DNA of 64,000 nucleotides, taken from Candidatus Zhuqueibacterota bacterium. GTDB taxonomy: Bacteria > Zhuqueibacterota > Zhuqueibacteria > Thermofontimicrobiales > Thermofontimicrobiaceae. The notes under the pieces are model-generated. The model was not told the origin of the DNA, made no database searches, and worked only from the letters and a program-made list of their open reading frames with translations. This document shows positions 2,335 to 19,269 of this stretch, piece by piece. Location: the NCBI GenBank assembly GCA_049322915.1, contig JBMOPW010000034.1, forward strand, positions 64,001 to 128,000. The letters run 5' to 3'. The translations under genes were made by a program, and so were the position numbers. Numbering within the stretch: position 1 is the first letter of the stretch; the number at the start of each line of letters is the position of its first letter.

Positions 2335-2387
2335 GCCCTCCAATGAATTTAAACAGAACATTGAGCACTCAAATTGGAGTTCATCCT

Positions 2388-3527
2388 ATGCAAAGGACAC
2401 GAATCATTTTAATTTTATCAGCGCTCCTGGGATTGTTAAGCGCAGTAACCGCCCAGAATTATTCTCCAATCATCGATACCGTAAAAGTACAACAGCGAGA
2501 CAATAGCTTCCTGGTTGATATTTACTACGACGTCATCGATACTGAATATGATTCGCTTATTGTGTTCATCCACGTATCCGAGGATAGCGGCGCGACGTTC
2601 AACGTCCCGGTGAATGCGCTGAGCGGTGACTTCGGATATCAAATTTACCCGGGCACAGACCGGCATATCGTCTGGGATGCCGGCAAAGACTATCCCGAGA
2701 AATTTGGCAAGAAATTCAAAGTGAAATTGACAGCCAGTGACACGAAGCTGAACCACGGGGAGGCGATTCCCCCGGGTGGATTTTACATGGGTGACAGCGC
2801 CGGATTCGATGATCCGCGCCATCTGATTGCGCTGGATGATTTCGAGGTGAGTCGTTACGAAGTGACGAATGCAGAATATCGTCTGTTTTGCGAAATGACA
2901 GATCGCGAATTTCCACCGGAAGGAGGATTGTTCCAGCCACCGAAAGGCTATTTTCTTGAATATAAAAATTACCCTGTGGTTGCCGTGAGCTGGTACGACG
3001 CTGTGCTGTATTGCAATTGGTTGAGCGAGCTACAGGGGCTGGAGCAATGTTACAACACAGTCAATTGGGTTTTCGATGAAACGAAGAACGGTTATCATTT
3101 GCCCACGGAAGCCCAATGGGAAAAAGCAGCGCGCGGCGGACTGGAAAAGATGCTTTATCCCTGGGGCGATGACCATCCGCCTGAAACCCGGGCGAACTAT
3201 CAAAATTACGCCGGCGATTTGATCACACTCATGGCCAACTTCGACGGACAGGGAAGAGGCACTCTGATGGTGGATACCCTAACCACCAATGGTCTTGGAT
3301 TGTATCAAATGGCCGGAAATGTCTGGGAATGGTGCAACGATTGGTACAATGATGAATATTATTATGACTCCCCTGATGAAAATCCACTTGGTCCGACGTC
3401 CGGTTCTGACCGAGTGATACGAGGTGGCGCATGGAATACCTCGGATATTTATCTTCATTGTGCGGCGCGGGATATGAAAGCGCCGGATAGAAAGCGGTAT
3501 GATATCGGTTTTCGGGTTGCACGTTAA
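2388..3527 (+). CDS. Secreted FGE/SUMF1-type (CLec-fold) protein with an N-terminal Ig-like domain
   Basis: Signal peptide. Motifs EVTNAEY, PVVAVSW, LPTEAQWEKAARGG, MAGNVWEW, RGGAW, GFRVAR. Lacks the catalytic Cys pair of true FGE. Confidence 0.88.
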   Translation: MQRTRIILILSALLGLLSAVTAQNYSPIIDTVKVQQRDNSFLVDIYYDVIDTEYDSLIVFIHVSEDSGATFNVPVNALSGDFGYQIYPGTDRHIVWDAGKDYPEKFGKKFKVKLTASDTKLNHGEAIPPGGFYMGDSAGFDDPRHLIALDDFEVSRYEVTNAEYRLFCEMTDREFPPEGGLFQPPKGYFLEYKNYPVVAVSWYDAVLYCNWLSELQGLEQCYNTVNWVFDETKNGYHLPTEAQWEKAARGGLEKMLYPWGDDHPPETRANYQNYAGDLITLMANFDGQGRGTLMVDTLTTNGLGLYQMAGNVWEWCNDWYNDEYYYDSPDENPLGPTSGSDRVIRGGAWNTSDIYLHCAARDMKAPDRKRYDIGFRVAR

Positions 3528-3568
3528 TGACGCATCGAATCAACTGAACAAAACATCACGAGGATAAC

Positions 3569-6500
3569 ATGAAAGCATACACATGGCAACGCGTTCTCTC
3601 ACTGGTCATTGCCATACATTTTCTGGGACTGTCGTTTGCACATGCCGACATCACATCAAAGCACAGCAATATTTTTACGCTGGATACTCGCGTTCAAAAT
3701 CCCGATCCGGTGGATGGCTGGCAGATCGTGACAAACCAGGGCAACACCTACAATGAAGATATCATCATCGATGACGTCGGCAAGGTATGGTGCTTTTATT
3801 TGAGAAACATCGGCCCGAACCCGCCAGTGTACATGAAGATTTTCACTTCGACAGGGTATATTTACAAGCACGAAACGGTTGTGGGGCATGCATCGCCTTT
3901 TACCTACTTCGTGCAGAATTCAATACGCGCCGCGCTCAATTCCGAGACTGGCGATGTCTGGGTGGCATTGGAGGGTAATTCCGGCGGTTATTTTGTCCGT
4001 TACGACTCCACCGGTGAGGTGGTTCAGGATTCCACGTTGCTCGCCGAAGAGTCTCATCTGCCCAAGATTATTGAAGGGACCGATGGTCAAATGTGGTTTT
4101 CGTGGCACACTTTCGCTAATGGCGGAGCCGAAAGTTTTGGGAAAATCGCAGCCTATTCTAACAGTGGCGCTCTTGCAATTCGACCCATATTTGTGAGTCA
4201 GTTTAATAATGTCTTCAATACAGATATTGCCATGGACGACAGCAATCAGATCTGGGTGGTGCTCGATAGCAATGACAATGGCAATTTCGCCAGCCGGTAC
4301 TGTGTGTTCAATGAGGATTTAGATCTCATCATCGCCGGCAATGTGATCAGCAATAATCCAATTCCATTGAACCCGCAGCGCCAGATTCTGGCTGACCGCA
4401 TCAATGGAAGGGTCTGGATTCTGGCCAAAAATGATACCACGCAAAAACAGAAACTCAATATGTATGGATTGGATGGTTCTCTTTTGACCAGCATCAACAA
4501 TGTCGGCGAATGCGCCTTTCTGAGAAATGAAACCAACCATCTGGAAGTGATGCGATTCAACAGCTCGGATCCATTGAACAAGCTGTACCAGATCGCCATG
4601 TTCAACGCGCAGGACGGAAGTCTATTTCAGGATTGGACCACTGAATTTGACAGCACCTACAGTTTTGTGAGAAATGGCTTGTCCTACGAGGGTGCTCAGA
4701 ATGGACTCAAAATCTACGCTGTCCATGAGGAAGAAAATTTAACCCGAATAAAATTTTTAGAGGTGACAGCCGGCTTGCCGGAAATTACGATCAGCCCGTC
4801 TTCCGTCAACTTCGATACAACGAAAATTATAAACGGTTACATTAAACATAAAGATATCAAAGTTTCCAATATCGGCAATGCAACTTTGGCGATCACGGAT
4901 ATCAACAATGAACGATCCAATTTCTTCGTGAGCGACACGGTCTTGCAGCTTTCGCCCGGGCAATCAGATAATATCACGGTTTATTTTGACCCGGCGGATA
5001 CGAACGTCCTTTACGACACGCTCATCGTTCACAGCAACTCCGTTCAGAATAATCCATTCGAAGTGGCGCTCGCCGGCAGAGGCTATAATCCCGGCTTCCC
5101 TGATATTTTGGTCAATCCAACAACCCTCGATTTTGACTCACTGGTCGTCAGGAATTCACTGATCAGGTATCTATATGTGTACAATCAGGACGTGTATGAA
5201 CACCTTGTGATTTCCTCGGTGACGTCACAAAGTCCGCACTTTAGCCATAGCACCGATGGCTTCACACTTGGGCCGAAAAGAGGCGAGTATATTGCTGTCA
5301 CGTTTCGGCCAACGTATGCCGGCACTCATCTGGATACTCTTTACATCAGCAGCAATGACCCGGAAAATCCCAATCTGGCAGTTCCGCTTTTTGGAGTAGG
5401 CCTCAGTGGAGAAGAACCGCAGATCGTTGTGGATGTTGATTCACTGTACTTCGGCGAATTGGCGCTGGGACGTGATAAAGTTTTGTATGTTGGCATTGAG
5501 AATGAAGGACAGACCACTCTGACCGTCAGCGAAATCGCTTCCAGTGATTCTCAGTTTACTGCGGAGCCGGCAGAATTCTCCCTGTCGCCGTATTCAAAGC
5601 GATATATTGCAGTAAATTTCCACGCCTACCGTCTTGGCGAAGCGCTTGCAACGCTGACGATTCAAAGCGATGATCTGGAATTTCCAGAATATAACATCAA
5701 ACTTGTTGGGATCGGTAGGGAAGAGTACCCGCCGTCCATTTCGGTTTACAGCGATTCGATCGATTTCGGCATTGTTCCCGTGGGAAATCAGAGTTTAAAA
5801 TACTTCTGGGTCATCAATGAAGGCGAACAAACGCTGGATGTAGAAAGCCTTGTCTCCAGTGACAAACAGTTCATAACCGATCGATCGAGTTTTTCCCTGA
5901 CGCCGGGCGGCGTTCAAATGGTCGCTGTCACTTTTGTTCCGGATGAACCGGGACTGATAAATGCCGAACTGATCCTTTCGAGCAACGATCCTGAAAATAG
6001 CAGAAAATCTGTGACACTCGTTGGGCAGGGGAGAAATTTAACAGAGCCCAATCTGGTTGTCAATGCGCAACAACTCGATTTTGGCGCCGTTGGCATTTCG
6101 CATTCTACGACCAAATACTTCACGGTTTACAATAGCGGCGAACAGACGCTTTCTGTGACGAACATTTATATCAGTGGGGTTCAGGGTAATCCGTACAACG
6201 TTCATCCCGGTTCATTCAATCTTTCGCCGTACCAATATCAGACCATCTATGTCACTTTCACGCCCAACGTGCTCGGCCAACTGAATGGGACGTTGAATAT
6301 CGAAAGTAACGATCCTCCGACCCGAACCGTGAGTCTGGTGGGAACAGGCCGTTTATTGAACGACCCGAACCTGTATGTGGATAAATCGCTTGTCTCTTTC
6401 AGCGAGACCGCCATTACCCGAACGACTAACTCCTACCTCTGGTTCAGCAACACCGGAGAGCAGGAATTGATCGTGGAAACAATGACCCATTCGGACACGA

Positions 6501-9500
6501 GCTTTTCGGTCAATATCGATAATTTTTCTCTCAACCCGGGCCAGAGCCAGTACGTGGTCGTTTCATTCGCTCCGAAACAAGTGGGCGAATATCTGGACAC
6601 GCTGAAAGTTTACAGTAACGATCCTGAAGACCGCCTGAAAAATATTGTACTCCTGGGATCGGGCAGAAATTTGTATTCTCAGAACATTCAAATCTCCAAT
6701 GACAGCCTTGCTTTTGGAGCGGTCCCCATTAATCAGCGCATTACGTACGGCCTGGTCGTTTACAACACAGGGGAACAGGATTTGACCATCAGCAATATTG
6801 GAAACGCTCTTCCTGAATTTCTGGTCGACACGCGCCAGTTCACCGTTTCGTCCAATTCCTATCGCACCCTTTATATCACCTTTGAACCGGACTCGCTAAA
6901 AGATTATAATGATGAATTATCGATTTCAAGCAATGACCCGGAGACGCCCGTCTCAACAGTGAAACTCAGCGGCATTGGAAGGAATTTGCTGGATCAAAAT
7001 CTCGCCACCGCTCCGGATAGTCTGTTCTTCGGCAGTATTGGTGTTGGTTTGAATCACACGATGAGTATCCAGCTTAGAAATATCGGAGAAAAGAATCTGG
7101 TCATTGATAGCATCCGGGTCACTCATCCGATGTTCTCTCTCAGCGGCCAGTCTGCGTTGACATTGTCGCCGGGCGCATCCCAGTGGCTGAATATCACATT
7201 TACTCCAACTGCGGTGGATACGTTCGACGCGGAACTCCATTTGTACAGCGACGACGTCGACTCCTCGGATTTCATTGTCCCGCTTCTTGGCTATGGCCGG
7301 GAATTGACCGGGCCGAATCTCGTCGTTTCTCCTGATGAATTGAATTTTCAGGATGTCCCTGTTCGCGGTATTGAGGAAGTCTTTTTGAGCGTTTACAATT
7401 CTGGCGAACAACATTTGAATATCACCGATATTCAGTCCGGAGATGTTCAATTCGTGCCGGCTCCTACAGAACTCACGTTAAGTCCGGGCGCGTCCCAATT
7501 GGTCAAAGTGACGTTCTCTCCCATGGCGATCGATACATTCGAAACTGAACTGATCTTTTTTAGCAATGACGGCGATAGCAGCGAATTTGAAGTTCCGATG
7601 ACTGGCATCGGTCGCGATTTGAGGGAGCAGAATTACGTCAGCAACGTCAAGTCTGTGGAATTCGGGGAAGTCATGCTTGGACAACGCATCACACGAAGCA
7701 TCACGTTCTCCAATAGCGGCGATCTTCCGCTTGTTCTTTACAATTGCACGACGACCGACACCCATTTTGTCTGCGCAACCGATTCGTTCATCGTCATCGG
7801 CGGCAGTGAGTATGCACTGCAAATAACATTTACACCGAGTGACACGCATTTTGTCCAGGCAGATTTGATTTTCAATACCAACGACCCTGATGTCTATTCA
7901 ACCACCATTCCGCTGCGAGGCTCAGGACAAATGGACACGCAGCAGATCGCTGTTTCGCCGGGCGCACTTTCTTTTGGCGATGTGAGAATTCATACAACGC
8001 GCAGCAGGTCAATTCAGGTGAGTAACTTTGGAGAGAAGACGCTCAATGTTTTCAATATCATTCCGACCGACACGGTTTACTCAACCAGCATTGGCAGTTT
8101 CTCTCTCATTCCCAACGAGACCCGAACTGTGTTCGTTTATTTCACTCCGGACACGATCAGATCTTATCAAGCGCAACTATTGTTTGTGAGCGATGATCCG
8201 GTCACGGATACTTTGGCCGTTATCCTGTATGGCGTTGGCAGAGATTCGCTGAGCGCGGCAATTACAACAAGCACCGACAGTCTGGGATTTGGTGAAGTCG
8301 CGGTGGACTTCTCTCGCTCCATTCACATGACCCTGTACAACTCCGGCGAAAAGACATTGCAGATCAGCAATATCACCACCACAGATTCTGTCTTCTCAGT
8401 CGGTCTGACGAATTTCAATGTCAATCCAAACTCTCAGGCGCTTCTGTTGGTTACATTCACGCCCGAAAGTATCACGAGCTACGCGGATACACTGACCATT
8501 TTCAGCAACGATCCGAACAACGACACGCTGCTGATTGAGCTCACCGGCATTGGCAGAAAGCAAAATGATCAGCATATTGCAGTCTCAGATACCTCGCTCA
8601 ATTTTGGCGTGGTGCCGACCGACCGATCGAGTACGAAAACTTTCTGGGTGTATAATAACGGTGAAAAGACGCTCGACGTCACTCAAATTGCAGTCAGCGA
8701 TTCGCAATACACGGTGAACAAAGAATGGCTACTCATTGCGCCGGGTCAGTATGAATACCTGCAGGTGACCTTCTCGCCAGATTTAGAAGATACAATTAAG
8801 GCCGTGCTGACGCTGACAAGCAATGATCCGGACGAATCTGATAAAACGATTCAACTCTCAGGGATAGGAGAATTGTACACCGGGCCAAGAATTATTGCCC
8901 TGAACAATTCACTGAATTTCGGCAATATGTTGATTGGCGCCACCAAAAAAATGACGTTCCGGGTTAAAAATCTGTCCCTGACTGATACCCTGATCATCAA
9001 TAACCTGACGTCGAATAACAGCAATTTTACCGTTTCAAAAAGTGAAATAAAAGCTCCTCCGATGGATAGCACGTCCATTCAGGTGACATACAAACCGAAT
9101 TCCATTGGCTATCATTCGGCTGCCCTGACGTTGTATTCCAATGATCTGTACCAGGAGCAGTTTAATTTCTGGGTATATGGACAGGGCATTTCCGAAAATG
9201 TCGGCACCAATTATTTAGCAAATCTGGGATGGAAAGTGAATGGGTATTCTCCATTCGGTCAGTATTTCAGCCCCAATCCGTATACAGATGACGTCCTGAG
9301 CGGTAGTGACATCCTGAACGATCCTAATGGCCGAGCCGACCGTGCCTGGTTCGTGAAAGATGTCTTCATTTATGACAATCCGGATACTGCGATTTTGAAT
9401 ATTTGCTATGATGATCAAATTTTTCTCTATGTCAATGGCACGTATGTTTACAATGACACCTCGGCCACGCCGCTCCACTGGAACATCGCTGATTTGAATG

Positions 9501-12034
9501 TCAAACCCTATCTGAAATTGGGCCGAAATCGGATAGCTATTTCCGTGTGGAATGAGTATAAAATTGGTGACTTCTTTTACGGCGGCTTCGATTGTGAATT
9601 CGTCGTGGATGGTGAAGCGAAAATCAGGCGCGGCGACCAGAACTGGACGCACCCGGATGCAACCTGGTGGTATTTTGGGGAGAACGGTGATTTTGAAACC
9701 AAGCCGGTTGACACAATTAACAATCGTCTATGGTTTTATGGCGAATACGGCCTGTCCGAAATCGATTCTGTCACGGCCAACTGGTCGTTCGAGCCGATTG
9801 TAGGCGATACGCTGTATGATGACACCCCGTACGGACAGGTTGCCATTCTGCACAACATAGCATGGATACAGGGGATCTCCGGTTCGTCCATGCGATTCAG
9901 CGGGGCCTATGACTCGTATGTTGAATTGCGGACCAATCTGAATACAGTTCCGCAGTCCATTGAGCTGTGGTTCAATTGCTACGGGCTTCGTTCCGGGTAC
10001 CAGAACATCATTACCAACAAAGGGAGCGGCTCCTTTGGCCATGGCTTATTCATCAATGAAACCGGCCTACTGGGCGTGTATTATTACGATGGTGAATTTC
10101 TGACCGACTACCTGGTTCAATTGAATACCTGGTTGTTCGTTTCCACGCAGTACTCCAATGATCGAATCAGGGTTTATATCAATAACACGCTCGTCGGGGA
10201 GTATGACATCACTGAGGATGAGGCAGGAAATCCCACCGGAGGAAATTACTGCTATCTTGGAGGCAATCCCCTGGGGGCTGATACAACGGCATTCAACGGC
10301 GCTATCGATGAATTGGTGATTAAAAACTCGGCATTTGCGCCATCGCCGATGCAAGCGGTCGCGACAATTTCAGTTTCAGAGCCGGACTCCGTGGTCAAAT
10401 TGAAAGAGTTGCAATTATCGTTCAATGTGTTCCCCAGCCCGTTTAAGCTGATCAGCGGAACCCTGGAATATGCAAAGGGCGGAAGCCAGAATTACCATTC
10501 AGTGACAGTGCCTGCGTCCGATTCGCTCGTTTCACCGGTCATCGTCAGTATTCCCGCCGACTCGATGACCATTCGGGGATTGAAGTACAGAATCTACCTC
10601 ACGACGAATTATGGGTCGGTTTATTTCCCACAAACCGGCGAGGGCGAAGAATATTTCTCCTGGATCAATGTCAGGACCAGCGGCGAGAATTCAACAGTGA
10701 CAATTCCTGAAAAGATATATAAGATGGTTTCTGTCCCGTACGAAGCGGACAGCCAATCGGTGTTTTCTGTGCTTGCCGATGATTTGAAAGAATACAATCC
10801 ATATTTCTGGCGATTGTTCGAATGGGATCATGAAGATACCCAGTATGTTGAATTCGGCGATACGCTCTGGCAATCCGGCCGAGGATTTGAACGCGGAAAA
10901 TCCTACTGGTTAATCTCAACCCGCGCTCTCAGTTTCGATGCCGGCTCAGGACATTCACCATCTGAGACGCATTATCGAATACAGCTAACCCCGGGCTGGA
11001 ACATGATTTCCAATCCATTCCCGTATTCTGTGAGCTGGCTCTCTGTTCTGAAATCGTCAGAGGGCATCGCCGATCCGGTTTATTGGGCTGCCGATGACAC
11101 AATTCGCTGGATTTACAATGTGGAGGAATTGGCGCCGTGGGCTGGTTATTTTCTCTGGAACGGAGACGCCAGCACGCGAAGTATTCTGATTCCGCCTCTG
11201 GAGTCGAGTGAAGTGCCTTTGAAAAAGCCGCTTTCGCTGGCAGATCGATACGAGGAAAAATATGGACAAATCTCAGTTTTGATCGCTGCAGAAGCGCGGT
11301 GCGGAAGATTTGTCGATATAGACAACCTGTTCGGCATCGCTGAAAACGCGAACAACGAACTGGATAGCTACGATATGAAGGAGGCGCCGGCTATTGGCAA
11401 TTTCGTGTCCCTGTTCATCGATAATAAGTCGTGGTCAGAGCAGGGGGGAGCTTACACTGTGGATATCCGAAAGCAGGATGGCGCCGGACAATGCTGGCCA
11501 GTCACGCTTTTATATACACTGGAAAGTCCGCCCAATAACATGTCCCTCTCATTGAAACCAATAACGGCGTTGCCTGAAGATTGGTCGATGTATCTTTTTG
11601 ACCTGTCAAATGATTTAGCCGTGAATATCGGTGAAGAGAAAAGCCTTGCTTTCAAGCCGGTGGCCAAACAACCGACGAAGAAAAATTATAAATTGATTGT
11701 TGGTACCCGGGAGTTCATCGAAAGCAATTCGGACGGGATACCGCTGGTTCCGCTCAAGTTTGAATTGTTCCAGAATTATCCTAACCCGTTCAATGCAGCG
11801 ACGACCATCAGTTTTAATCTCCCGGAACGAATGAAAGCGACTGTGAAAATCTACAATGTGCTGGGGCAACTTGTAAAGACTGTTGTAGACGATGCGGAGA
11901 TGCGTGGCGGGCATCAAACGCTCATTTGGGACGGAAAGAACGAGCATGGTAATTTGGTCACAACAGGCCTGTACCTGGTTCGTTTGGAGACCAAAAAGGA
12001 CATCGCCATTAAGAAGCTACTCTTAATCAAGTAA
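3569..12034 (+). CDS. Giant secreted surface protein (2821 aa): N-terminal propeller-like region, 14 choice-of-anchor-D/ASH-type Ig-like repeats, LamG-like domain, T9SS type A/FlgD-like C-terminal domain
   Basis: Fourteen ~100-aa repeats (P-x-I...L-x-FG...N-x-G...L-x-I...F-x-P...SNDP...L-x-G-x-G) at about 4778-9190. LamG motifs IELWF and FNGAIDE. C-terminal QNYPNPFN...WDGKN...KKLLLIK. Confidence 0.88.
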   Translation: MKAYTWQRVLSLVIAIHFLGLSFAHADITSKHSNIFTLDTRVQNPDPVDGWQIVTNQGNTYNEDIIIDDVGKVWCFYLRNIGPNPPVYMKIFTSTGYIYKHETVVGHASPFTYFVQNSIRAALNSETGDVWVALEGNSGGYFVRYDSTGEVVQDSTLLAEESHLPKIIEGTDGQMWFSWHTFANGGAESFGKIAAYSNSGALAIRPIFVSQFNNVFNTDIAMDDSNQIWVVLDSNDNGNFASRYCVFNEDLDLIIAGNVISNNPIPLNPQRQILADRINGRVWILAKNDTTQKQKLNMYGLDGSLLTSINNVGECAFLRNETNHLEVMRFNSSDPLNKLYQIAMFNAQDGSLFQDWTTEFDSTYSFVRNGLSYEGAQNGLKIYAVHEEENLTRIKFLEVTAGLPEITISPSSVNFDTTKIINGYIKHKDIKVSNIGNATLAITDINNERSNFFVSDTVLQLSPGQSDNITVYFDPADTNVLYDTLIVHSNSVQNNPFEVALAGRGYNPGFPDILVNPTTLDFDSLVVRNSLIRYLYVYNQDVYEHLVISSVTSQSPHFSHSTDGFTLGPKRGEYIAVTFRPTYAGTHLDTLYISSNDPENPNLAVPLFGVGLSGEEPQIVVDVDSLYFGELALGRDKVLYVGIENEGQTTLTVSEIASSDSQFTAEPAEFSLSPYSKRYIAVNFHAYRLGEALATLTIQSDDLEFPEYNIKLVGIGREEYPPSISVYSDSIDFGIVPVGNQSLKYFWVINEGEQTLDVESLVSSDKQFITDRSSFSLTPGGVQMVAVTFVPDEPGLINAELILSSNDPENSRKSVTLVGQGRNLTEPNLVVNAQQLDFGAVGISHSTTKYFTVYNSGEQTLSVTNIYISGVQGNPYNVHPGSFNLSPYQYQTIYVTFTPNVLGQLNGTLNIESNDPPTRTVSLVGTGRLLNDPNLYVDKSLVSFSETAITRTTNSYLWFSNTGEQELIVETMTHSDTSFSVNIDNFSLNPGQSQYVVVSFAPKQVGEYLDTLKVYSNDPEDRLKNIVLLGSGRNLYSQNIQISNDSLAFGAVPINQRITYGLVVYNTGEQDLTISNIGNALPEFLVDTRQFTVSSNSYRTLYITFEPDSLKDYNDELSISSNDPETPVSTVKLSGIGRNLLDQNLATAPDSLFFGSIGVGLNHTMSIQLRNIGEKNLVIDSIRVTHPMFSLSGQSALTLSPGASQWLNITFTPTAVDTFDAELHLYSDDVDSSDFIVPLLGYGRELTGPNLVVSPDELNFQDVPVRGIEEVFLSVYNSGEQHLNITDIQSGDVQFVPAPTELTLSPGASQLVKVTFSPMAIDTFETELIFFSNDGDSSEFEVPMTGIGRDLREQNYVSNVKSVEFGEVMLGQRITRSITFSNSGDLPLVLYNCTTTDTHFVCATDSFIVIGGSEYALQITFTPSDTHFVQADLIFNTNDPDVYSTTIPLRGSGQMDTQQIAVSPGALSFGDVRIHTTRSRSIQVSNFGEKTLNVFNIIPTDTVYSTSIGSFSLIPNETRTVFVYFTPDTIRSYQAQLLFVSDDPVTDTLAVILYGVGRDSLSAAITTSTDSLGFGEVAVDFSRSIHMTLYNSGEKTLQISNITTTDSVFSVGLTNFNVNPNSQALLLVTFTPESITSYADTLTIFSNDPNNDTLLIELTGIGRKQNDQHIAVSDTSLNFGVVPTDRSSTKTFWVYNNGEKTLDVTQIAVSDSQYTVNKEWLLIAPGQYEYLQVTFSPDLEDTIKAVLTLTSNDPDESDKTIQLSGIGELYTGPRIIALNNSLNFGNMLIGATKKMTFRVKNLSLTDTLIINNLTSNNSNFTVSKSEIKAPPMDSTSIQVTYKPNSIGYHSAALTLYSNDLYQEQFNFWVYGQGISENVGTNYLANLGWKVNGYSPFGQYFSPNPYTDDVLSGSDILNDPNGRADRAWFVKDVFIYDNPDTAILNICYDDQIFLYVNGTYVYNDTSATPLHWNIADLNVKPYLKLGRNRIAISVWNEYKIGDFFYGGFDCEFVVDGEAKIRRGDQNWTHPDATWWYFGENGDFETKPVDTINNRLWFYGEYGLSEIDSVTANWSFEPIVGDTLYDDTPYGQVAILHNIAWIQGISGSSMRFSGAYDSYVELRTNLNTVPQSIELWFNCYGLRSGYQNIITNKGSGSFGHGLFINETGLLGVYYYDGEFLTDYLVQLNTWLFVSTQYSNDRIRVYINNTLVGEYDITEDEAGNPTGGNYCYLGGNPLGADTTAFNGAIDELVIKNSAFAPSPMQAVATISVSEPDSVVKLKELQLSFNVFPSPFKLISGTLEYAKGGSQNYHSVTVPASDSLVSPVIVSIPADSMTIRGLKYRIYLTTNYGSVYFPQTGEGEEYFSWINVRTSGENSTVTIPEKIYKMVSVPYEADSQSVFSVLADDLKEYNPYFWRLFEWDHEDTQYVEFGDTLWQSGRGFERGKSYWLISTRALSFDAGSGHSPSETHYRIQLTPGWNMISNPFPYSVSWLSVLKSSEGIADPVYWAADDTIRWIYNVEELAPWAGYFLWNGDASTRSILIPPLESSEVPLKKPLSLADRYEEKYGQISVLIAAEARCGRFVDIDNLFGIAENANNELDSYDMKEAPAIGNFVSLFIDNKSWSEQGGAYTVDIRKQDGAGQCWPVTLLYTLESPPNNMSLSLKPITALPEDWSMYLFDLSNDLAVNIGEEKSLAFKPVAKQPTKKNYKLIVGTREFIESNSDGIPLVPLKFELFQNYPNPFNAATTISFNLPERMKATVKIYNVLGQLVKTVVDDAEMRGGHQTLIWDGKNEHGNLVTTGLYLVRLETKKDIAIKKLLLIK

Positions 12035-12093
12035 AAGATACGCTCTGGAAATCGGAAGAAAGTCAATGTGCTATGAAAATTTGGAGAATACCC

Positions 12094-13185
12094 ATGTATA
12101 AAATCTATTTGAAAATTCTCGCGGTGATTGCAATATCAGGAACTTTGATCGCTGCGCCTGAGGGTGGAAGATTATCCACTGGATTTGTCTTTCAGAAATG
12201 GACGATTGAAAACGTCACGAATCCGGTTTCCGAAGGCTCCTTTCCGATTGAATTGATCTATCCTTTCATGGATAACCTTCAGGTTCAGGTGAGTCATTTG
12301 CCGGCTCTGTCACAATTTGGTGAATCAAATCTGGCAGGGCTTTCCGACACCTGGATCAGAACGTCGTATTCGCTGATGAACAATCAACTGGCGCTCAGTC
12401 TTGGGGTTGGCCTCCCTACAGGAAAAACAGAGTTGGACTCCACTGAAATCCTCATCACCCAACTCATCAGTCAAAATTCATTCAAGTTCCGACTGCCTGT
12501 TTTTGGTCAAGGCCTGACGCTCTCTGGCGGCGTGATGTATGCGCTGCCAGTGAATGATCTCTTCACAGTGGGTATTGGTGCAAATTATGTGTATCGAGGT
12601 CAATATAAATTCAGCAAACTTTCCCCCTTCGAATATGACCCGGGCGATCAGATTGGTGGAAATATCGGATTTGATTATTCAATCAATCCGTCTCTCACCG
12701 CAAGTCTTGATTGTGTTTATAGCTATTACCTCGCGGACAAGCTGGACAAGACCGAGGTTTTCACCTCTGGTCCCAATTTCACGATTAAATTATTCACCCA
12801 ATACAAACTCGACTTCGGCGATCTGTGGCTGAATGCTTTCTATCGCGCAAAATCCAGGAATGAAACGTGGGATGGCCAGGCGTTGGCGCCGGAAGCGAAA
12901 AATTCGAATGTCACTTTGCGTGAAGTTGAGTTGGGGTCCCGGATCCGGCTCAATGAAATCGTCTTCATCAACGTGCTCACTGAGTTGAGAACCTATGCAA
13001 AGAATGAGTACGATACAGGATCGATCACCATTTTTGGTGGCGGCATTGGATACGATTTATCAGTAACACGGAACTTTGCCCTCTCTATGGGAATTAAATT
13101 GTTCTTCGGAAATGGTGAATTTTTCAATACCACTCCGTCGTTAACTGGCAATGAGTTTTATTTTGGTACTCAATGGTACTTCTAA
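12094..13185 (+). CDS. Putative outer-membrane beta-barrel protein
   Basis: Signal peptide, alternating amphipathic strands, GLSDT and LPTG motifs, C-terminal aromatic signature (FGTQWYF). Confidence 0.7.
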   Translation: MYKIYLKILAVIAISGTLIAAPEGGRLSTGFVFQKWTIENVTNPVSEGSFPIELIYPFMDNLQVQVSHLPALSQFGESNLAGLSDTWIRTSYSLMNNQLALSLGVGLPTGKTELDSTEILITQLISQNSFKFRLPVFGQGLTLSGGVMYALPVNDLFTVGIGANYVYRGQYKFSKLSPFEYDPGDQIGGNIGFDYSINPSLTASLDCVYSYYLADKLDKTEVFTSGPNFTIKLFTQYKLDFGDLWLNAFYRAKSRNETWDGQALAPEAKNSNVTLREVELGSRIRLNEIVFINVLTELRTYAKNEYDTGSITIFGGGIGYDLSVTRNFALSMGIKLFFGNGEFFNTTPSLTGNEFYFGTQWYF

Positions 13186-13211
13186 TCTGATTAACTTACA
13201 TGGATCATGCG

Positions 13212-13895
13212 ATGAAAAAAATTTTCATTCTGTCGTTACCCTTGTTTCTCTTTATCTCTTTAATTTCGTTTTCTCATGCAACTGAAAAAACAATCGCTCT
13301 TCTTGATTTTTCAAATAATTCTCTTTTCGATAAAGAGAAATATTCCTCATTGTCACCTGGTTTGGCTGAAATTATGATCACCGAACTCAGCAAAATAAAA
13401 GCATTCAAATTGGTGGAGAGAAAAAAAATCAACGCACTGATTGAGGAGATGCAACTTTCGCAGAGTGGTTTGATTTCCGAGGAAAGCAATATTCAGGTCG
13501 GAAAATTACTGGGAGCACAATATCTCGTCTTTGGCAGTTACATGGTTAATTCAAAAGATAAGGTGCGAATCGATGTGCGTATTGTCGAGGTGGAAACAGG
13601 CTTGACAATTAAGGCCGAGGAAGTGACGGACAAACTCGATAAAATATTCGATATCATTAAAAAGCTCAATGATAAAATTATAAAAGACCTGGACATCAAA
13701 TTATCAAGCGCAGAACGGCAGACCTTAGACGAGGGAAGTGCTTCATTAGAAGTGATTGCCTATTTTTCCCAGGGAATAGCATTTGAAGAGAAAAAAGAAT
13801 TCGAAAAAGCAAAACAGATGTACATCAAGGCATTGAAAAGTGATCAAAGTTATGAGCCAGCAAAGACGCGCCTGAAAGAACTGATGCAGAAATAA
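13212..13895 (+). CDS. Secreted CsgG/HfaB/FlgO-like protein with a C-terminal TPR
   Basis: IALLDF...GLAEIMITEL...LVERKKINALIEEM...VGKLLGAQYLVFGS...RIVEVETG. Paralogous to the central domain of 961-2334. Confidence 0.82.
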   Translation: MKKIFILSLPLFLFISLISFSHATEKTIALLDFSNNSLFDKEKYSSLSPGLAEIMITELSKIKAFKLVERKKINALIEEMQLSQSGLISEESNIQVGKLLGAQYLVFGSYMVNSKDKVRIDVRIVEVETGLTIKAEEVTDKLDKIFDIIKKLNDKIIKDLDIKLSSAERQTLDEGSASLEVIAYFSQGIAFEEKKEFEKAKQMYIKALKSDQSYEPAKTRLKELMQK

Positions 13896-13914
13896 CATTG
13901 CCACTGAAAATAAA

Positions 13915-13973
13915 AAAAAGCATTTAACTATTAATTTCTTAATGGATAAAAAAACAATAGTTGAATGCTTTTT
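13915..13973. terminator. Putative bidirectional terminator between convergent genes
   Basis: Inverted repeat AAAAAGCATTTAACTATT / AATAGTTGAATGCTTTTT. Confidence 0.55.
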
Positions 13974-13997
13974 CTGTGCTAAAAAAATCGACTTGCA

Positions 13998-14216
13998 TTA
14001 ATTCGCAGCGGCAGCTAAATTGACCTGATAGGGCATCTGTTGCCGTGCGACCGTACCGACGGTGATGAAGCTGTACAAATCTCTTCCGCAGTTATTTTTG
14101 CATTTGAAATTTCTAAAGATTTCATCACAATTATCCTGAGATGTAATTCGAAATTTCTCAACATTACCGCATGATTCACAGGTAATGATGAGTTCTGTGA
14201 CATCGATTCTTTTCAT
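13998..14216 (-). CDS. Small Cys-rich (putative zinc-ribbon) protein, 72 aa
   Basis: CESC...CKNNC. Strong GAGGAG RBS and a sigma54-type promoter upstream. Confidence 0.7.
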   Translation of the reverse strand: MKRIDVTELIITCESCGNVEKFRITSQDNCDEIFRNFKCKNNCGRDLYSFITVGTVARQQMPYQVNLAAAAN

Positions 14217-14267
14217 TGAGCCTTCTCCTCGTATGGCGAATTTGTGTTTTGAATTAGTCTAAATATG

Positions 14268-14283
14268 GCAATATCCATACCAG
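14268..14283 (-). promoter_or_regulatory. Putative sigma54 promoter for the 72-aa gene
   Basis: Minus strand CTGGTATGGATATTGC (GG-N10-GC), about 50 bp upstream of the start codon. Confidence 0.65.
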
Positions 14284-14350
14284 GCGATAAAGTCAATATA
14301 TAGTATGATCATAATTATTCAAGTACAATATGTAGATTATTAATTGACAA

Positions 14351-14368
14351 AGTGTCTCAATTCGGACA
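14351..14368. promoter_or_regulatory. Putative upstream activating sequence
   Basis: TGTCTCAATTCGGACA, about 70-85 bp upstream of the -24 element. Matches the 874-891 palindrome. Confidence 0.55.
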
Positions 14369-14440
14369 AGCACTGGATAATTATAAAACAATCATTCAAT
14401 TGATACCTGGAAAATAACTAACTGAATGTTATCTTAGAAT

Positions 14441-14569
14441 ATGAAATTAATTATCATATCATTACTGGTCCTTGTCATTCTCATCCTGAAACGACAGATT
14501 AAAAAAAGTCCCAGCAAAATTAGAGAAAGACGAAGCCGAATCCTGGATAGAATGCGCCATCATGAATGA
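14441..14569 (+). CDS. Possible 42-aa small membrane protein
   Basis: MKLIIISLLVLVILILKRQIKKSPSKIRERRSRILDRMRHHE: a hydrophobic helix followed by a basic tail. No clear RBS. Confidence 0.35.
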   Translation: MKLIIISLLVLVILILKRQIKKSPSKIRERRSRILDRMRHHE

Positions 14570-14611
14570 TACGAATTCAATCAGAAAAATATAAATATGC
14601 TAAAAAAACTC

Positions 14612-14640
14612 TTGCATTATTTTTAATTTATTTGTATATT
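14612..14640 (+). promoter_or_regulatory. Sigma70-type promoter of the tRNA cluster
   Basis: TTGCAT-N17-TATATT just upstream of tRNA-Gly. Confidence 0.65.
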
Positions 14641-14657
14641 TGCAGGCGATAAAATAA

Positions 14658-14729
14658 GCGGGAGTAGTTCAGTGGTAGAACACCACCTTGCCAAGGTGGT
14701 TGTCGCGAGTTCAAGTCTCGTCTCCCGCT
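14658..14729 (+). tRNA. tRNA-Gly(GCC)
   Basis: Cloverleaf; anticodon arm CCACC-TTGCCAA-GGTGG; T-loop TTCAAGT. Confidence 0.96.
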
Positions 14730-14737
14730 CAATTTTA

Positions 14738-14810
14738 GGCGGCGTAGCCAAGTGGCTAAGGCGGAGGTCTGCAAAACCTCTATGCATCGGTTCGACTCCG
14801 ATCGCCGCCT
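14738..14810 (+). tRNA. tRNA-Cys(GCA)
   Basis: GGCGGCG/CGCCGCC acceptor stem; GAGGT-CTGCAAA-ACCTC; U discriminator. Confidence 0.96.
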
Positions 14811-14823
14811 CGTCTAAGTAAGA

Positions 14824-14909
14824 GCCGGGGTGGCGGAATTGGTAGACGCAAGGGACTTAAAATCCCTCGGATATTTATATCCGTGCCGGTTCGACTCCGG
14901 CCCTCGGCA
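14824..14909 (+). tRNA. tRNA-Leu(TAA)
   Basis: AGGGA-CTTAAAA-TCCCT; long variable arm; classic Gly-Cys-Leu order. Confidence 0.96.
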
Positions 14910-14992
14910 CATATCGAAAATAAGTGCTGTAAATAAATCTTAAAAGCGGAGTCATTTTATTTATGGCACGCTTTTTTATTATAAAAATACAC

Positions 14993-15066
14993 GGGCGATT
15001 AGCTCAGATGGTTAGAGTGCTTGCTTGACATGCAAGAGGTCACTGGTTCAATTCCAGTATCGCCCA
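14993..15066 (+). tRNA. tRNA-Val(GAC)
   Basis: CTTGC-TTGACAT-GCAAG; GGGCGAT/ATCGCCC acceptor stem. Confidence 0.96.
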
Positions 15067-15163
15067 CTAACATAATGAAAAAATTGAGATATGCCGAATT
15101 CTGCACACAATGGGGATTCGGCTTATAATATTTAGAGGCTGTTAATAAACTGTAAATTGTGAC

Positions 15164-17083
15164 ATGAATAAAATTACAATTACATTCCCTGACGGAGAAC
15201 AGAAAGCCTTTGACAAGGGTATCACCCCGGAGGCAATAGTCAAGGAAATAAGCCATTCATTGGCCAAGAAAACCGTTGCGGCAAAGTTAAATGACAGGTT
15301 GATTGATATTAACAGGCCTTTAGTCGAAAATGGAACGCTTGTTTTTATCACCAATGATACAAAAGAAGGGCGGGAAGTCTTCTGGCATAGCACCGCTCAC
15401 ATCATGGCCCACGCAATAAAGAGATTATATCCCGAAGCAAAATTTGGCTTTGGCCCGGCTCTTGAGGATCGTTTTTTTTATGATTTCGAAATCAATAAAT
15501 CCCTTAGCCTGGAAGACCTGGACGCAATTGAAAAAAAGATGATGGAAATCGTGGAAGAAGATGCTCCATTCATCCGCGAAGAAATTTCAAGGGAAGAAGC
15601 GGTGAAAATTTTCACCGAAAGAAAAGAGCCCTATAAAGTCGAGCATATTGCCGATCTTGACAGCAATACGAGCATCTACAAAGAAGGTGATTTTATCGAC
15701 CTGTGCTCCGGTCCGCATCTTCCGTCGACTGGGCTGGTGAGAAACTTCAAGCTACTGGCTATTTCTGGCGCCTATTGGAAGGGCAATGAAAAAAATCCAA
15801 TGCTTCAACGGATTTATGGAGTTTCCTATCCCAAGAAAACCGAGTTGGATGATTTCCTGTTCAAATTAGAAGAAGCTAAAAAGCGCGATCACCGCCGGTT
15901 GGGACGCGAGTTGGATCTGTTCAGCATAAACGATGATTGCGGAGCTGGTTTGATACTATGGCATCCTAAAGGTGCACTCATCAGAAAAATAATGGAAGAT
16001 TTCTGGCGGGATGAACATCTCGAAGCCGGTTACGAATTAGTCAACACTCCACATATTGCGCGACTCGACCTGTGGGCGAAAAGTGGTCACTTAGATTTCT
16101 TCACCGAAAATATGTACAGCCCAATTGAAATGGACAACATGAAATACCAGTTAAAGCCCATGAATTGTCCGTTTCATTTACTCATTTATAAGAGCCAGGG
16201 AAAAAGCTATCGCGATTTACCAATACGATGGGCTGAATTAGGCACCGTGTATCGCTACGAGCGTTCTGGCGTTTTGCATGGTTTGATGCGAGTTCGGGGA
16301 TTCACTCAGGATGATGCCCACATTTTTTGTCGACCGGACCAACTCCAGGATGAGATTATTAATTGTTTAGATTTCACAATGTTCATTCTAACGACTTTTG
16401 GCTTCAGTGAATTCGAAATTTATTTATCCACACGACCAGAACATTTCGTCGGGACAATTGAAAACTGGGACCAGGCAACGAATGCGTTGAAAAATGCTTT
16501 AGAAAAAAGAGAGTTAGATTATACAATCGATCCCGGTGAAGGCGTCTTTTATGGCCCGAAAATTGATATAAAAATCAAGGACAGCCTTGATCGCGCCTGG
16601 CAATGTACGACCATTCAAGTAGATTTCAATGAACCGGCGCGATTTGATATAACGTATCGCGGCCAGGATGGTCAGGAATATCGGCCCATTATGATTCACA
16701 GGGCACTTATGGGATCATTGGAGCGTTTTTTTGGAACGTTGATCGAGCATTATGCCGGTGCTTTTCCAATTTGGCTTTCTCCGGTTCAGGCTATTGTTCT
16801 ACCCATCACGGATGCTCATGCGGAATATGCAACTCATTTAGAAAAACTCCTAAAAGAGAAAAAAATTCGTTGCAAAGTTGATGATCGAAACGAGAAGGTC
16901 AATCTGAAAATACGTGAAGCCGAAATTCAAAAAATACCTTATATGCTGATTGTCGGGGATAAAGAAAAACAAACAGTTCAGGTGTCAGTTCGAAAAAGGA
17001 AAGAGGGAGATTTAGGTCAATTTCAGATAAATGACTTGATCAATAAAATCACCACAGAAATCGAAAATAAAGTTTGTCACTGA
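15164..17083 (+). CDS. thrS: Threonine--tRNA ligase
   Basis: TGS domain, HSTAH, DLCSGPH, RDHRRLG, KPMNCP, FYGPKID, MIHRA. Confidence 0.98.
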   Translation: MNKITITFPDGEQKAFDKGITPEAIVKEISHSLAKKTVAAKLNDRLIDINRPLVENGTLVFITNDTKEGREVFWHSTAHIMAHAIKRLYPEAKFGFGPALEDRFFYDFEINKSLSLEDLDAIEKKMMEIVEEDAPFIREEISREEAVKIFTERKEPYKVEHIADLDSNTSIYKEGDFIDLCSGPHLPSTGLVRNFKLLAISGAYWKGNEKNPMLQRIYGVSYPKKTELDDFLFKLEEAKKRDHRRLGRELDLFSINDDCGAGLILWHPKGALIRKIMEDFWRDEHLEAGYELVNTPHIARLDLWAKSGHLDFFTENMYSPIEMDNMKYQLKPMNCPFHLLIYKSQGKSYRDLPIRWAELGTVYRYERSGVLHGLMRVRGFTQDDAHIFCRPDQLQDEIINCLDFTMFILTTFGFSEFEIYLSTRPEHFVGTIENWDQATNALKNALEKRELDYTIDPGEGVFYGPKIDIKIKDSLDRAWQCTTIQVDFNEPARFDITYRGQDGQEYRPIMIHRALMGSLERFFGTLIEHYAGAFPIWLSPVQAIVLPITDAHAEYATHLEKLLKEKKIRCKVDDRNEKVNLKIREAEIQKIPYMLIVGDKEKQTVQVSVRKRKEGDLGQFQINDLINKITTEIENKVCH

Positions 17084-17115
17084 GTTGCGTTCAACAAAAT
17101 TAACGGAGGCTAATT

Positions 17116-17625
17116 ATTAAGAAAAAAGAAATTCGCATCAATGATCAAATTAAAGCCCCTAAAGTGAGGGTAATTGGTGCTGATGGAAAACAAATCGGAG
17201 TTCTGAGTATTGAAGAGGCCAACAAGGCAGCGATGGAAGCTGGAATGGACCTCATAGAGATAGTTCCAAATTCAAATCCCCCTGTTTGTAAGGTTATTGA
17301 TTATGGTAAGTTTAAATACGAACTGAGTAAAAAAGAAAAAATTGTAAAAAAACGTCAGCATGTTATCCAGCTAAAAGAAATTCGGTTAAGCCCTAAAACT
17401 GAAGGGCACGATATAGAATTTAAAATCAAGCACGCACGTAAGTTTATTGAACAAGGCAACAAAGTCAAATTAAACATTTTATTCAAAGGACGGCAGATAA
17501 CCCATCAGGAATTCGGGCGGCAACTCATGGAGAGAATCATCCAGGAGTTAGACGATATCGCCAAGATCGAGAGCCCGCCCCATATAGAGGGAAGAAATAT
17601 GGTTGCTGTCATTATTAAGAAATGA
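17116..17625 (+). CDS. infC: Translation initiation factor IF-3 (ATT start)
   Basis: GGAGG RBS at 17105-17109, then an in-frame ATT at 17116 giving (M)[11 protein letters not shown]...[13 protein letters not shown]. Confidence 0.96.
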
Positions 17626-17647
17626 AATAATTTACGAGGAATACGTA

Positions 17648-17842
17648 ATGCCAAAAATGAAAAGTAAACGCGGAGCTGTCAAGCGTTTTCGAACAACGGG
17701 TTCCGGAAAAATTAAAAGATTCCATGCTTTTTCAAGCCATATTCTGACTAAAAAATCGAGAAAACGAAAACGAAATCTTCGTAAGCCAGGATTGATATCC
17801 AATTCAGAGGTCAGAAGAGTGAAACAATTGATTTTAGCTTAA
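17648..17842 (+). CDS. rpmI: 50S ribosomal protein L35
   Basis: [14 protein letters not shown]...HILTKK; synteny. Confidence 0.97.
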
Positions 17843-17856
17843 GATTTGGAGGGGCA

Positions 17857-18204
17857 ATGCCTAGATCAAAATATAGTGTTCCATCGAGAAATAAACGAAA
17901 GAAAATTCTGAAAGCCGCTAAGGGATATTATGGCGCAAAACATCGTCTCTTGTTATCTGCCAGAGAAGCGGTAGAGCGGGGACTTCTCTATTCTTATCGT
18001 GACAGAAGAAAAAGACCGGGACAGTTCCGGACATTGTGGATTACGCGGATTAATGCCGCTGTCAGAAATTATGGAATGTCCTATTCATCCTTTATGCACG
18101 CTTTAAAAAAGAACAACATTTTACTAGACAGAAAAGTCCTTGCCGACATGGCTGTGAACGATTCCAAAGGATTTGACAGTCTGGTCCAGAAAGTTATTTC
18201 ATAA
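17857..18204 (+). CDS. rplT: 50S ribosomal protein L20
   Basis: [34 protein letters not shown]. Confidence 0.97.
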
Positions 18205-18409
18205 CTAAACGTGGATTGTCTTCTTGAGTATGACTGGCAATCTAAATACGAAATATGTACGTACAATTCTGAATAATTTTCTGAAAATGTTTCTCCAAAT
18301 AAGTACAATTAAAGCAAGTATAAACGCTTTCATTTCCTTGCGTTTAATCGTTGCAAGCCAAGCACCCGGATGTTCTCTAATTTGATTTAGAAAAACTAAG
18401 TAAGAGTAT

Positions 18410-18706
18410 ATGATGTTCGGAGATCCTTCACCGGCCGATTATCCTGAAATCGAGAAATTGGAAGAGAAAGTAACCAGGCTCATCACGGTTGTTCAAAAAT
18501 TATATTCAGAAAATAAAGAAATAAAAAAGCGAAATGAGGATCTACTTCAACAAAGTCAAGAGCAGCAAACTCTTATAAATATGTTGAAAGAGCAATGCTA
18601 TAAGTTACAACATATTGAAGATAATACAAAAATTTACCAGGAACGGGAAGAGAATATCAGGAATAAAATTCAGCAAATGCTCAAGAAGCTCGAGAATTTG
18701 CAGTAA
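18410..18706 (+). CDS. Coiled-coil protein, ZapB-like
   Basis: Heptad-rich 98-aa protein directly upstream of zapA. Confidence 0.65.
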   Translation: MMFGDPSPADYPEIEKLEEKVTRLITVVQKLYSENKEIKKRNEDLLQQSQEQQTLINMLKEQCYKLQHIEDNTKIYQEREENIRNKIQQMLKKLENLQ

Positions 18707-18784
18707 CTAAAAAATTGAACTGAATCAAAGTGCGTTTACAATTAACAAAAACGGTTGTATGTTTTAATAAAATATAGACGCTAA

Positions 18785-19093
18785 ATGAGCGATGAGTACA
18801 ACATACTCAAGGTCAATATTTACGGTACAGATTACCCGATTAAAGGAAATACGGATATAGAATATATTAAAAAAGTGGCGCAGTACGTAGATAAAAAAAT
18901 GAGAGAAGTCAACAAAAACATCTCCATCGATTCATCATTGAAAGTCTCCATTCTGGCCGCTTTGAATATAACCGACGAACTATTCCGAGAACGTGAAGAG
19001 AATGAGAAGAATTTATCAATTTTAAAAATCAAAGAACGATTAAAAAAATTGAACAATGACCTGGATGAATGTTTAAAATATTTTAAAGAATAA
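18785..19093 (+). CDS. zapA: Cell division protein ZapA
   Basis: VNIYGTDY...VAQYVDKKM...ILAALNITDEL. Confidence 0.92.
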   Translation: MSDEYNILKVNIYGTDYPIKGNTDIEYIKKVAQYVDKKMREVNKNISIDSSLKVSILAALNITDELFREREENEKNLSILKIKERLKKLNNDLDECLKYFKE

Positions 19094-19113
19094 AACGCAT
19101 CACTCTTTGGCTG

Positions 19114-19229
19114 AACCCTGATTTTTGTATATTTGTGACGCACATTTTAAATTGTAAACATAATCGTAGCAAAACTATTTTTTTTTACTACGCTGGACGA
19201 TGTGCTACAAATAACTAAAAACCAGGGTT
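19114..19229 (+). ncRNA. ssrS: Probable 6S RNA (compact, AT-rich)
   Basis: Rod-like fold: AACCCTG/CAGGGTT, TATTTGT/ACAAATA, GCACAT/ATGTGC, an internal bubble, then CGTAG/CTACG. Located between zapA and rny, a conserved ssrS position. Confidence 0.55.
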
Positions 19230-19269
19230 TTTTGTTGACAATCAACTCACCCAAAAAATTGGAGGGGAG

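Follow-up and report, generated by a model that had tools for sequence, protein, structure and literature searches.

A 64,000-nucleotide stretch of a Candidatus Zhuqueibacterota genome (GCA_049322915.1, contig JBMOPW010000034.1, positions 64,001 to 128,000; hereafter the window) carries on its forward strand a cluster of five genes, the first three of which are co-directional and encode a TPR/CsgG-like protein (P0003), a protein with the fold of the formylglycine-generating enzyme (FGE), and a giant protein of 2821 amino acids (3569-12034). The FGE-fold protein opens with an immunoglobulin (Ig)-like domain, and the mature giant opens with a short, isolated, strand-like segment. An earlier reading of the window, made from the letters alone (the sequence-only reading), had proposed that this segment supplies the final strand of the Ig-like domain in trans, so that a lectin-like tip would dock on the stalk. 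Comparison of the two genes with their relatives leads us to favor the view, at somewhat better than even chances, that the giant donates this final strand in trans to the FGE-fold protein.

The FGE-fold open reading frame (ORF) spans 2343-3527 and has a second in-frame ATG at 2388. The database form of the protein (P0004) is about 379 amino acids long and about 50 orthologues have 377-381, so the true start is probably the ATG at 2388; the form that begins at 2343, with 15 extra residues before the signal peptide, is probably not used. The signal peptide (2388-2453; orthologue lengths, and a helix at residues 2-21 in the AlphaFold2 model) is followed by an Ig-like domain of 96 residues (Q23-D118; 2454-2741), which translates as QNYSPIIDTVKVQQR...FKVKLTASD, and the FGE-sulfatase domain PF03781 begins seven residues past this end (residues 142-394 of the long form, E 2.9e-55). 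In an AlphaFold2 model built on a 62-sequence alignment (pLDDT 92.4 and pTM 0.88 overall), the N-terminal domain has strands at residues 28-36, 42-50, 57-64, 78-80, 83-86, 89-97, and 111-117, with a pLDDT of about 90; after strand 111-117 there is no further strand until the first hairpin of the FGE domain, and the family profile matches the domain up to the penultimate strand. The Ig-like domain has no Pfam family, with only sub-threshold matches to Big_9 (0.053) and, weakly and on tandem forms, to Mo-co_dimer, which we take to be an Ig-like (E-set) domain. PDB sequence searches with the domain profile A3 (see below) and the tandem protein P0193 returned no relative of solved structure, an ESM Atlas search returned only unnamed clusters with scores ≤0.80, and a Foldseek search with the whole-protein model was dominated by matches to the FGE domain, leaving the N-terminal domain uninformed.

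The remainder of the protein (2742-3527, stop codon included) comprises a short linker and a head with the FGE-sulfatase fold, recognized by PF03781 and by Foldseek matches to FGE structures (E 1e-23), with further matches to TvpA (2y3c) and PorK. In an alignment to human FGE (1y1e), ...GGSYMCHRSYCYRYRCAAR stands opposite ...GGAWNTSDIYLH---CAAR, and both of the residues that we take to be the catalytic, copper-binding cysteine pair are replaced, by T and L. Judged by its residues, the FGE-fold protein is a non-enzymatic, C-type-lectin-like head. Family scans of the Pfam and TIGRFAM type identified no sorting domain of the type IX secretion system (T9SS) in it. The possibility that the head gene is a target of a diversity-generating retroelement (DGR) was rejected because the genome holds no template repeat (blastn of 3200-3540 against the genome gave only paralogue-level matches, ≤49 nt at 90%), and neither Avd nor reverse transcriptase (RT) was found among the cluster genes and close neighbors scanned (3-2334 and 12073-20829, a small part of the window).

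The giant translates as MKAYTWQRVLSLVIAIHFLGLSFAHA | DITSKHSNIFTLDTR VQNPDPVDGWQ, that is, a signal peptide MKAYTWQRVLSLVIAIHFLGLSFAHA (3569-3646; equal layout in 30 homologues), a mature N-terminal segment of exactly 15 residues (3647-3691) that is the candidate last strand of the Ig-like domain, and a Pro-rich linker VQNPDP (3692-3709), after which the conserved VDGWQ opens a β-propeller. These boundaries agree with the sequence-only reading, in which the Ig-like domain (2466-2741) falls within the span given above and ends correctly at FKVKLTASD, and in which the position and residues of the donor segment and the Pro-rich nature of the linker are borne out by translation. The strand motif lies 6-15 residues past the predicted signal-peptide cleavage site and is kept in all 30 giant homologues aligned; in 18 giants F10, D13, T14, and R15 (mature numbering) are invariant, at a mean column identity of 45%. 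An AlphaFold2 model of giant residues 27-410 (mature 1-384; 18-sequence alignment; pLDDT 88, pTM 0.87) leaves mature residues 1-14, which hold the invariant motif, below a pLDDT of 50 and devoid of secondary structure; pLDDT then climbs from 54 to 90 across the linker, into a seven-bladed propeller at about giant residues 48-398 (3710-4762) that has 28 strands with a pLDDT of about 90 and matches the seven-bladed PLL/PHL lectins and CylK in Foldseek (TM-score about 0.63-0.65). The donor Asp is among the invariant positions of the 18 giants; an isopeptide lock of the SpyTag/SpyCatcher type was nevertheless rejected because the acceptor lacks a conserved Lys, the N-domain part of the 62-sequence alignment having no column in which Lys is invariant or nearly so.

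Within its own genome, the Ig-like domain occurs in a single clear copy (E 1.4e-40; the next match, at 9.7e-05, has no significant single stretch). The motif F-x-[LVMI]-D-T-[RK] has 10 matches in 40,178 six-frame ORFs, one of which stands just behind a signal peptide. The sole acceptor and the sole donor of the genome adjoin each other. The sequence-only reading had added that tips could be exchangeable, which finds no support in a genome with one acceptor and one donor.

The relatives of the pair within the phylum place both pieces in one domain. A search of genome contigs with the single giant N-terminus gave no relative, and a phylum-wide genome search was used for the counts: the N-terminal region of the giant is present in 19 of 167 phylum genomes, all of one order (family f1, 11/13 leaving aside the genome of the window; f2, 2/2; f3, 5/5). 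In f1 and f2, all 13 loci with enough upstream DNA have the order TPR/CsgG-like gene, Ig-FGE gene, and giant opening with signal peptide and strand; upstream sequence is missing at L003 and L010. At one locus (L005, genome G128) the Ig-FGE gene upstream of the giant is divided over two reading frames, with ORFs of 100 and 232 aa, as a result of a frameshift or an assembly error. In f3, by contrast with this split arrangement, the Ig-like domain is fused in cis at the start of the giant in all five genomes, which lack the FGE gene. The fused giants match the domain profile at E 1e-16 to 1e-24 over positions 3-96, and 8-10 residues past the Ig-like domain they carry S-[DE]-[PL]-F-x-V-D-T-R, followed by the same propeller; the N-terminal strand of the window's giant is orthologous to this segment. 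A P0003 homologue with a PPxPPG-type end lies upstream in split and fused loci alike. Because f3 fuses both pieces in cis, the gene break in the window, by homology, lies inside what is one continuous domain in the sister family. In four of the five f3 genomes the fused copy of the Ig-like domain is the only one; the fifth (G135) has one extra, strand-less copy on a protein without an FGE domain. This copy (L103, contig C151, minus strand, 88-1830) heads a protein of 580 aa without FGE-like sequence; a neighboring ORF of 236 aa ends in what looks by eye like a T9SS tail, and the downstream neighbor falls outside the locus.

The same strand forms part of the domain in tandem arrays elsewhere. 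With a profile built from the fused form (A3), a search of 1.84 billion representative proteins gave 2339 matches at E ≤1e-3, 777 at 1e-10, and 48 at 1e-30. Among the best 150 of the 2339 matches, 96 carry tandem copies, with up to 29 matched stretches, and the commonest end positions of the tandem matches are 109 (116 matches), 110 (80), 108 (30), and 111 (18), with the strand included. F-x-[VLIM]-D-[TNS] follows the last array unit in 62 of 102 arrays and internal units in 121 of 201 cases, and precedes the first array unit in 0 of 79. Because the motif follows last units and never precedes first units, these positions identify the strand as the last, C-terminal one of the canonical domain. 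The other 54 of the 150 are single-copy matches, which end at 94-97 (37 matches), 98-102 (5), and 104-112 (6), the remaining 6 being fused giants that reach 123. The strand-less copies come immediately after a signal peptide, and past them lie FGE-fold, Laminin-G-like, or other domains.

Gene pairs of the same kind occur in other phyla. GTDB species genomes were scanned with strand-less domains of other lineages (9-sequence alignment A5), and 80 loci were analyzed out of 377 relatives confirmed. They belong mainly to Verrucomicrobiota, Planctomycetota, Kiritimatiellia, and Lentisphaerae, and also to Poribacteria, Syntrophales, and others; loci from metagenome-assembled genomes of Prosthecobacter, Luteolibacter, Haloferula, and Coraliomargarita are among them. 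A copy of the domain was found in 80/80 loci (of the matches, 13 extend to at least profile position 99, 4 break off early, and the others stop at 93-98), and an FGE-sulfatase domain in all five acceptors scanned against Pfam. A donor-type gene was defined as one on the same strand, downstream, with a signal-peptide-like start and F-x-[VLIM]-[DN]-[TNSL] within its first 130 residues. Such a gene is present in 29/80 loci (27 of the 60 whose downstream sequence extends for 1 kb or more), compared with 4/767 upstream or opposite-strand control ORFs under the same criteria. This comparison is the co-occurrence check suggested by the sequence-only reading. For the immediately downstream gene alone, the count is 17/61 compared with 17/987 other ORFs (Fisher p about 1e-13), and 12 of the latter 17 "controls" are themselves further-downstream, same-strand genes of like kind. 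Some further partners bear variant motifs that the pattern misses. In five loci of rumen or gut Kiritimatiellia type (L021, L023, L024, L026, and L031), an unrelated conserved gene comes after the acceptor ORF (about 511-606 aa), with no donor gene within 4 kb.

The donor-type partners differ in the number of motif copies, with one copy in 16, two in 5, three in 5, and four in 3, as in the tandem example ...GDSPTFPLDTRD...SAEFVIDTRS...DSSTFVLDTRG...DSDTFTLDTRG. The three or four tandem copies, about 18-22 residues apart, are found in the partners of L043, L046, L050, L059, L067, L076, L081, and L093; because partners carry three or four tandem strand copies, the arrangement suggests that several heads dock on one scaffold. 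Eight partners scanned against Pfam have no family in common, and encode TSP3 repeats, dockerin, PKD, hydrolase folds, or nothing recognizable by these families. In 9 of the 80 loci (L058, L062, L067, L068, L071, L073, L076, L086, and L093), signatures of Avd and/or RT occur downstream of the acceptor, and where these loci hold a donor gene, the signatures sit between acceptor and donor; bAvd and RVT_1 were confirmed in L071 by Pfam. From these Avd and RT genes beside them, at least some of the acceptor relatives are predicted to be DGR variable proteins of the TvpA type.

The family scans gave no match for the N-terminal region of the giant. Beyond the propeller, the protein continues with a stalk of at least 14 choice-of-anchor D/HYDIN-type Ig-like repeats (4763-9910; 14 stretches each for NF012200, E 1.1e-148, and PF22544), a Laminin_G_3/concanavalin A-like domain (residues 2115-2256; 9911-10336; PF13385, E 2.4e-11), and a T9SS type A C-terminal sorting domain (11777-12034, stop codon included; TIGR04183, E 2.8e-09, and PF18962). 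The last of these marks the giant as T9SS type A cargo, and a homologue of the SprA translocon was found in the same genome. Upstream of the FGE-fold gene, P0003 (946-2334) is a TPR and CsgG-like protein of lipoprotein type, 462 aa long, with a Pro-rich tail (Pfam CsgG, E 2.3e-11; weak TPR matches). Downstream of the giant is a 370-aa protein (12073-13185) with a signal-like start and no Pfam match, which ends in ...GTQWYF, presumably a resemblance to an outer-membrane β-barrel signature; its position is what would place it in the system. A second CsgG/LpoB/FlgO-like protein with TPR (13200-13895; Pfam CsgG, E 4.3e-16, LpoB, FlgO, and TPR_1) ends the cluster, which is thus flanked by two CsgG/LpoB/FlgO-like TPR proteins (candidates for an anchor, an assembly factor, or a channel) and is followed, beyond 13895, by thrS and infC.

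The layout of the proteins, the homology of the domain, its fused and split forms, the disorder of the strand in cis, and the conserved gene pairing are observed; from them we infer that the two proteins bind each other, that the binding takes place in the periplasm, and that they are exported together. Two adjacent genes would share one Ig-like domain of E-set type, which the FGE-fold protein carries through the penultimate strand (...FKVKLTASD), with the final strand absent. Sec would deliver both proteins to the periplasm, signal-peptide cleavage would free the N-terminal final strand S-N-I-F-T-L-D-T-R of the giant, and this strand would slot in beside the last strand of the acceptor, completing the sandwich in a 1:1 donor-strand joint that does not polymerize. 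The FGE-fold protein, which has no sorting signal of its own, would then exit through the T9SS with the folded giant, whose sorting domain would direct export, and the head would end up beside the propeller, at the end of the stalk opposite the sorting domain. The proposal of strand supply in trans that was read from the window alone is in this way partly supported, by four independent but indirect lines: the comparative evidence of fused orthologues, tandem-unit ends, and gene pairs in other phyla, and the predicted disorder of the strand in cis.

Several observations weigh against a joint in trans. The genomes compared are mutually related, so that counts such as the 29 of 80 loci overstate independence, and of the 60 loci with 1 kb or more of sequence downstream, 33 yielded no gene with the strict donor motif. 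The acceptor of L066 has a strand-like segment in cis and yet a donor-type gene 2.6 kb downstream, and the acceptor of L075 likewise has a cis strand-like segment. Under a 14-residue weight matrix derived from the cis strands of tandem units, the giant's strand does not stand out, whether across the whole genome or among ORFs with signal peptides (score 2.4, rank 48th of 3162 signal-peptide-like ORFs), and the giant's strand and the cis strands have in common only the core F-x-[LV]-D-T. Moreover, the acceptor domain is confidently predicted by AlphaFold2 without the donor strand (pLDDT about 90; whole-protein pTM 0.88), and it is possibly stable by itself, or the FGE domain may shield its open edge. 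The confident fold, the 33 loci without a strict-motif donor, the weak matrix similarity, and the frequency of strand-less N-terminal copies on many proteins (37 of the 54 single-copy matches) would all suit a relic of gene rearrangement, in which an ancestral giant that opened with a complete Ig-like domain gained an FGE cassette by insertion or lost one by deletion; the acceptor would be stable alone, and the giant's strand would bind another partner, for instance one of the CsgG-like lipoproteins or a component of the T9SS, or would serve only as a flexible leader. Such a history seems unlikely to us, given that the strand is the only invariant run within the region that AlphaFold2 leaves disordered: neither its invariance across 18-30 giants at 33-62% identity nor its multiplication to two to four tandem copies in unrelated partners of other phyla would be expected of a relic.

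The strand could also be completed in cis, by folding back on the first choice-of-anchor D Ig repeat of the giant itself or on another part past residue 410. Packing of the peptide into the giant's own first domain, which the sequence-only reading had named as a result that would count against strand donation, did not occur in the AlphaFold2 model; the model covers residues 27-410, and the first Ig repeat lies beyond, where it is expected near the N-terminus because the two ends of the propeller meet, propeller termini normally being adjacent. In the fused orthologues, however, the strand trails the Ig-like domain at hairpin distance, the partners in other phyla bear the strand without a propeller or choice-of-anchor D repeats, and up to four tandem strands could not all serve in cis, all of which makes completion in cis quite improbable. 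That the motif and the end of the Ig-like domain are simply unrelated, their neighborhood reflecting an operon of surface proteins, is to our minds a very slim prospect: the motif is short, and a relaxed form of it gives 21 signal-peptide-associated matches in the 6.25-Mb genome, but the fused forms put both pieces in one domain, and donor-type genes are enriched beside acceptors relative to control ORFs.

In a wider sense, and with chances that we would call even, the window pair would be one case of a widespread, chaperone-free "plug and socket" derived from a split Ig-like domain. The sockets would be carried by secreted heads of C-type-lectin/FGE fold, some of them DGR-diversified in bacteria of the Planctomycetes-Verrucomicrobia-Chlamydiae (PVC) group, and the plugs, one to four in tandem, would stand at the mature N-terminus of otherwise unrelated scaffolds (a T9SS giant here; TSP3-, dockerin-, PKD-, or hydrolase-containing proteins elsewhere). 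Because scaffolds bear one to four plugs, a scaffold could show one or several heads, with the tandem plugs suggesting multivalent display, and the partner could export and position a head that has no sorting signal of its own; in the window, a lectin-like protein without a sorting domain would reach the T9SS cell surface by hitch-hiking on folded cargo. On DGR targets, the "N-terminal extensions of unknown function" would be explained. If the joint is real, an uncurated Ig-like domain that occurs in over 2000 protein clusters would gain a function, and many FGE-fold proteins, DGR-diversified ones included, would be tied to specific scaffold partners, making the location and the holder of DGR variable proteins directly testable. 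Donor-strand complementation, known mainly from pili, would gain a cellular, non-polymerizing case, and the two pieces would constitute a natural, genetically encodable docking pair that could be put to use as a peptide tag with its catcher domain.

In chaperone-usher pili (Fim, Pap, Caf1, and Saf), an Ig-like domain lacks its C-terminal strand, which is supplied by the N-terminal extension of the next protein. The window pair resembles them in both respects: the C-terminal strand is missing from an Ig-like domain (the profile is matched to 108-111 in tandem units and to 94-97 in copies of the window type), and the candidate donor lies on the N-terminal extension of the partner. Whereas every subunit of such a pilus combines a groove with a donor strand, here acceptor and donor are on two distinct, non-pilin proteins, the FGE-fold protein being acceptor only and the giant donor only, one of each in the genome, so that the outcome would be a single joint and no polymer. 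The domain family of the window is also unrelated in sequence, having neither a Pfam nor a PDB match, and the Pfam scan of the five cluster genes and their neighbors found no PapD-like chaperone or usher family, with CsgG-like and TPR proteins present instead. Because there is no chaperone or usher nearby, no polymerization, and an unrelated domain family, the window pair is not a member of the chaperone-usher class. The analogy to chaperone-usher and type V pili drawn by the sequence-only reading is hence apt for the joint itself, and does not extend to polymerization or to a chaperone and usher among the neighboring genes.

A close parallel in terms of the head is with the type V pili of Bacteroides, for which a preprint describes DGR-diversified tip adhesins of C-type-lectin fold mounted by β-strand insertion (bioRxiv 10.1101/2024.11.15.621889). 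The proposed joint would likewise place a C-type-lectin-fold head on a stalk, and acceptor relatives in other phyla adjoin Avd and RT genes; unlike the window proteins, which show neither feature, the pilins as described there are protease-matured lipoproteins, the acceptor domain is of another family, and the window's gene differs from the diversified tips in having no template repeat in the genome. In the baseplate of phage Tuc2009, a terminal extension of BppU completes the β-sheet of a BppA domain and thereby holds a carbohydrate-binding module on a larger structure (PMC4742702), which resembles the proposed joint in that the terminal extension of one protein would complete the sheet of a domain in another; the donor there is a C-terminal hairpin in a phage baseplate, whereas here it would be one strand at the N-terminus, in a secreted system of the cell. 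Archaeal thread filaments are built by donor-strand complementation without bacterial chaperone-usher machinery (PMC9715654), and share with the proposed joint the absence of that machinery; they are homopolymers of one pilin-like subunit, in contrast with a one-off joint of two different proteins. Within the library searched, no paper was found that joins a diversity-generating retroelement with a donor strand, and "strand complementation" is absent from the matches listed for the retroelement and variable-protein literature. With regard to the fold of the head, TvpA and PorK/GldK (PDB 2y3c and 9mzu) are the counterparts of the FGE-fold protein, as they too have the FGE-sulfatase fold without formylglycine-generating chemistry and serve a binding or structural role.

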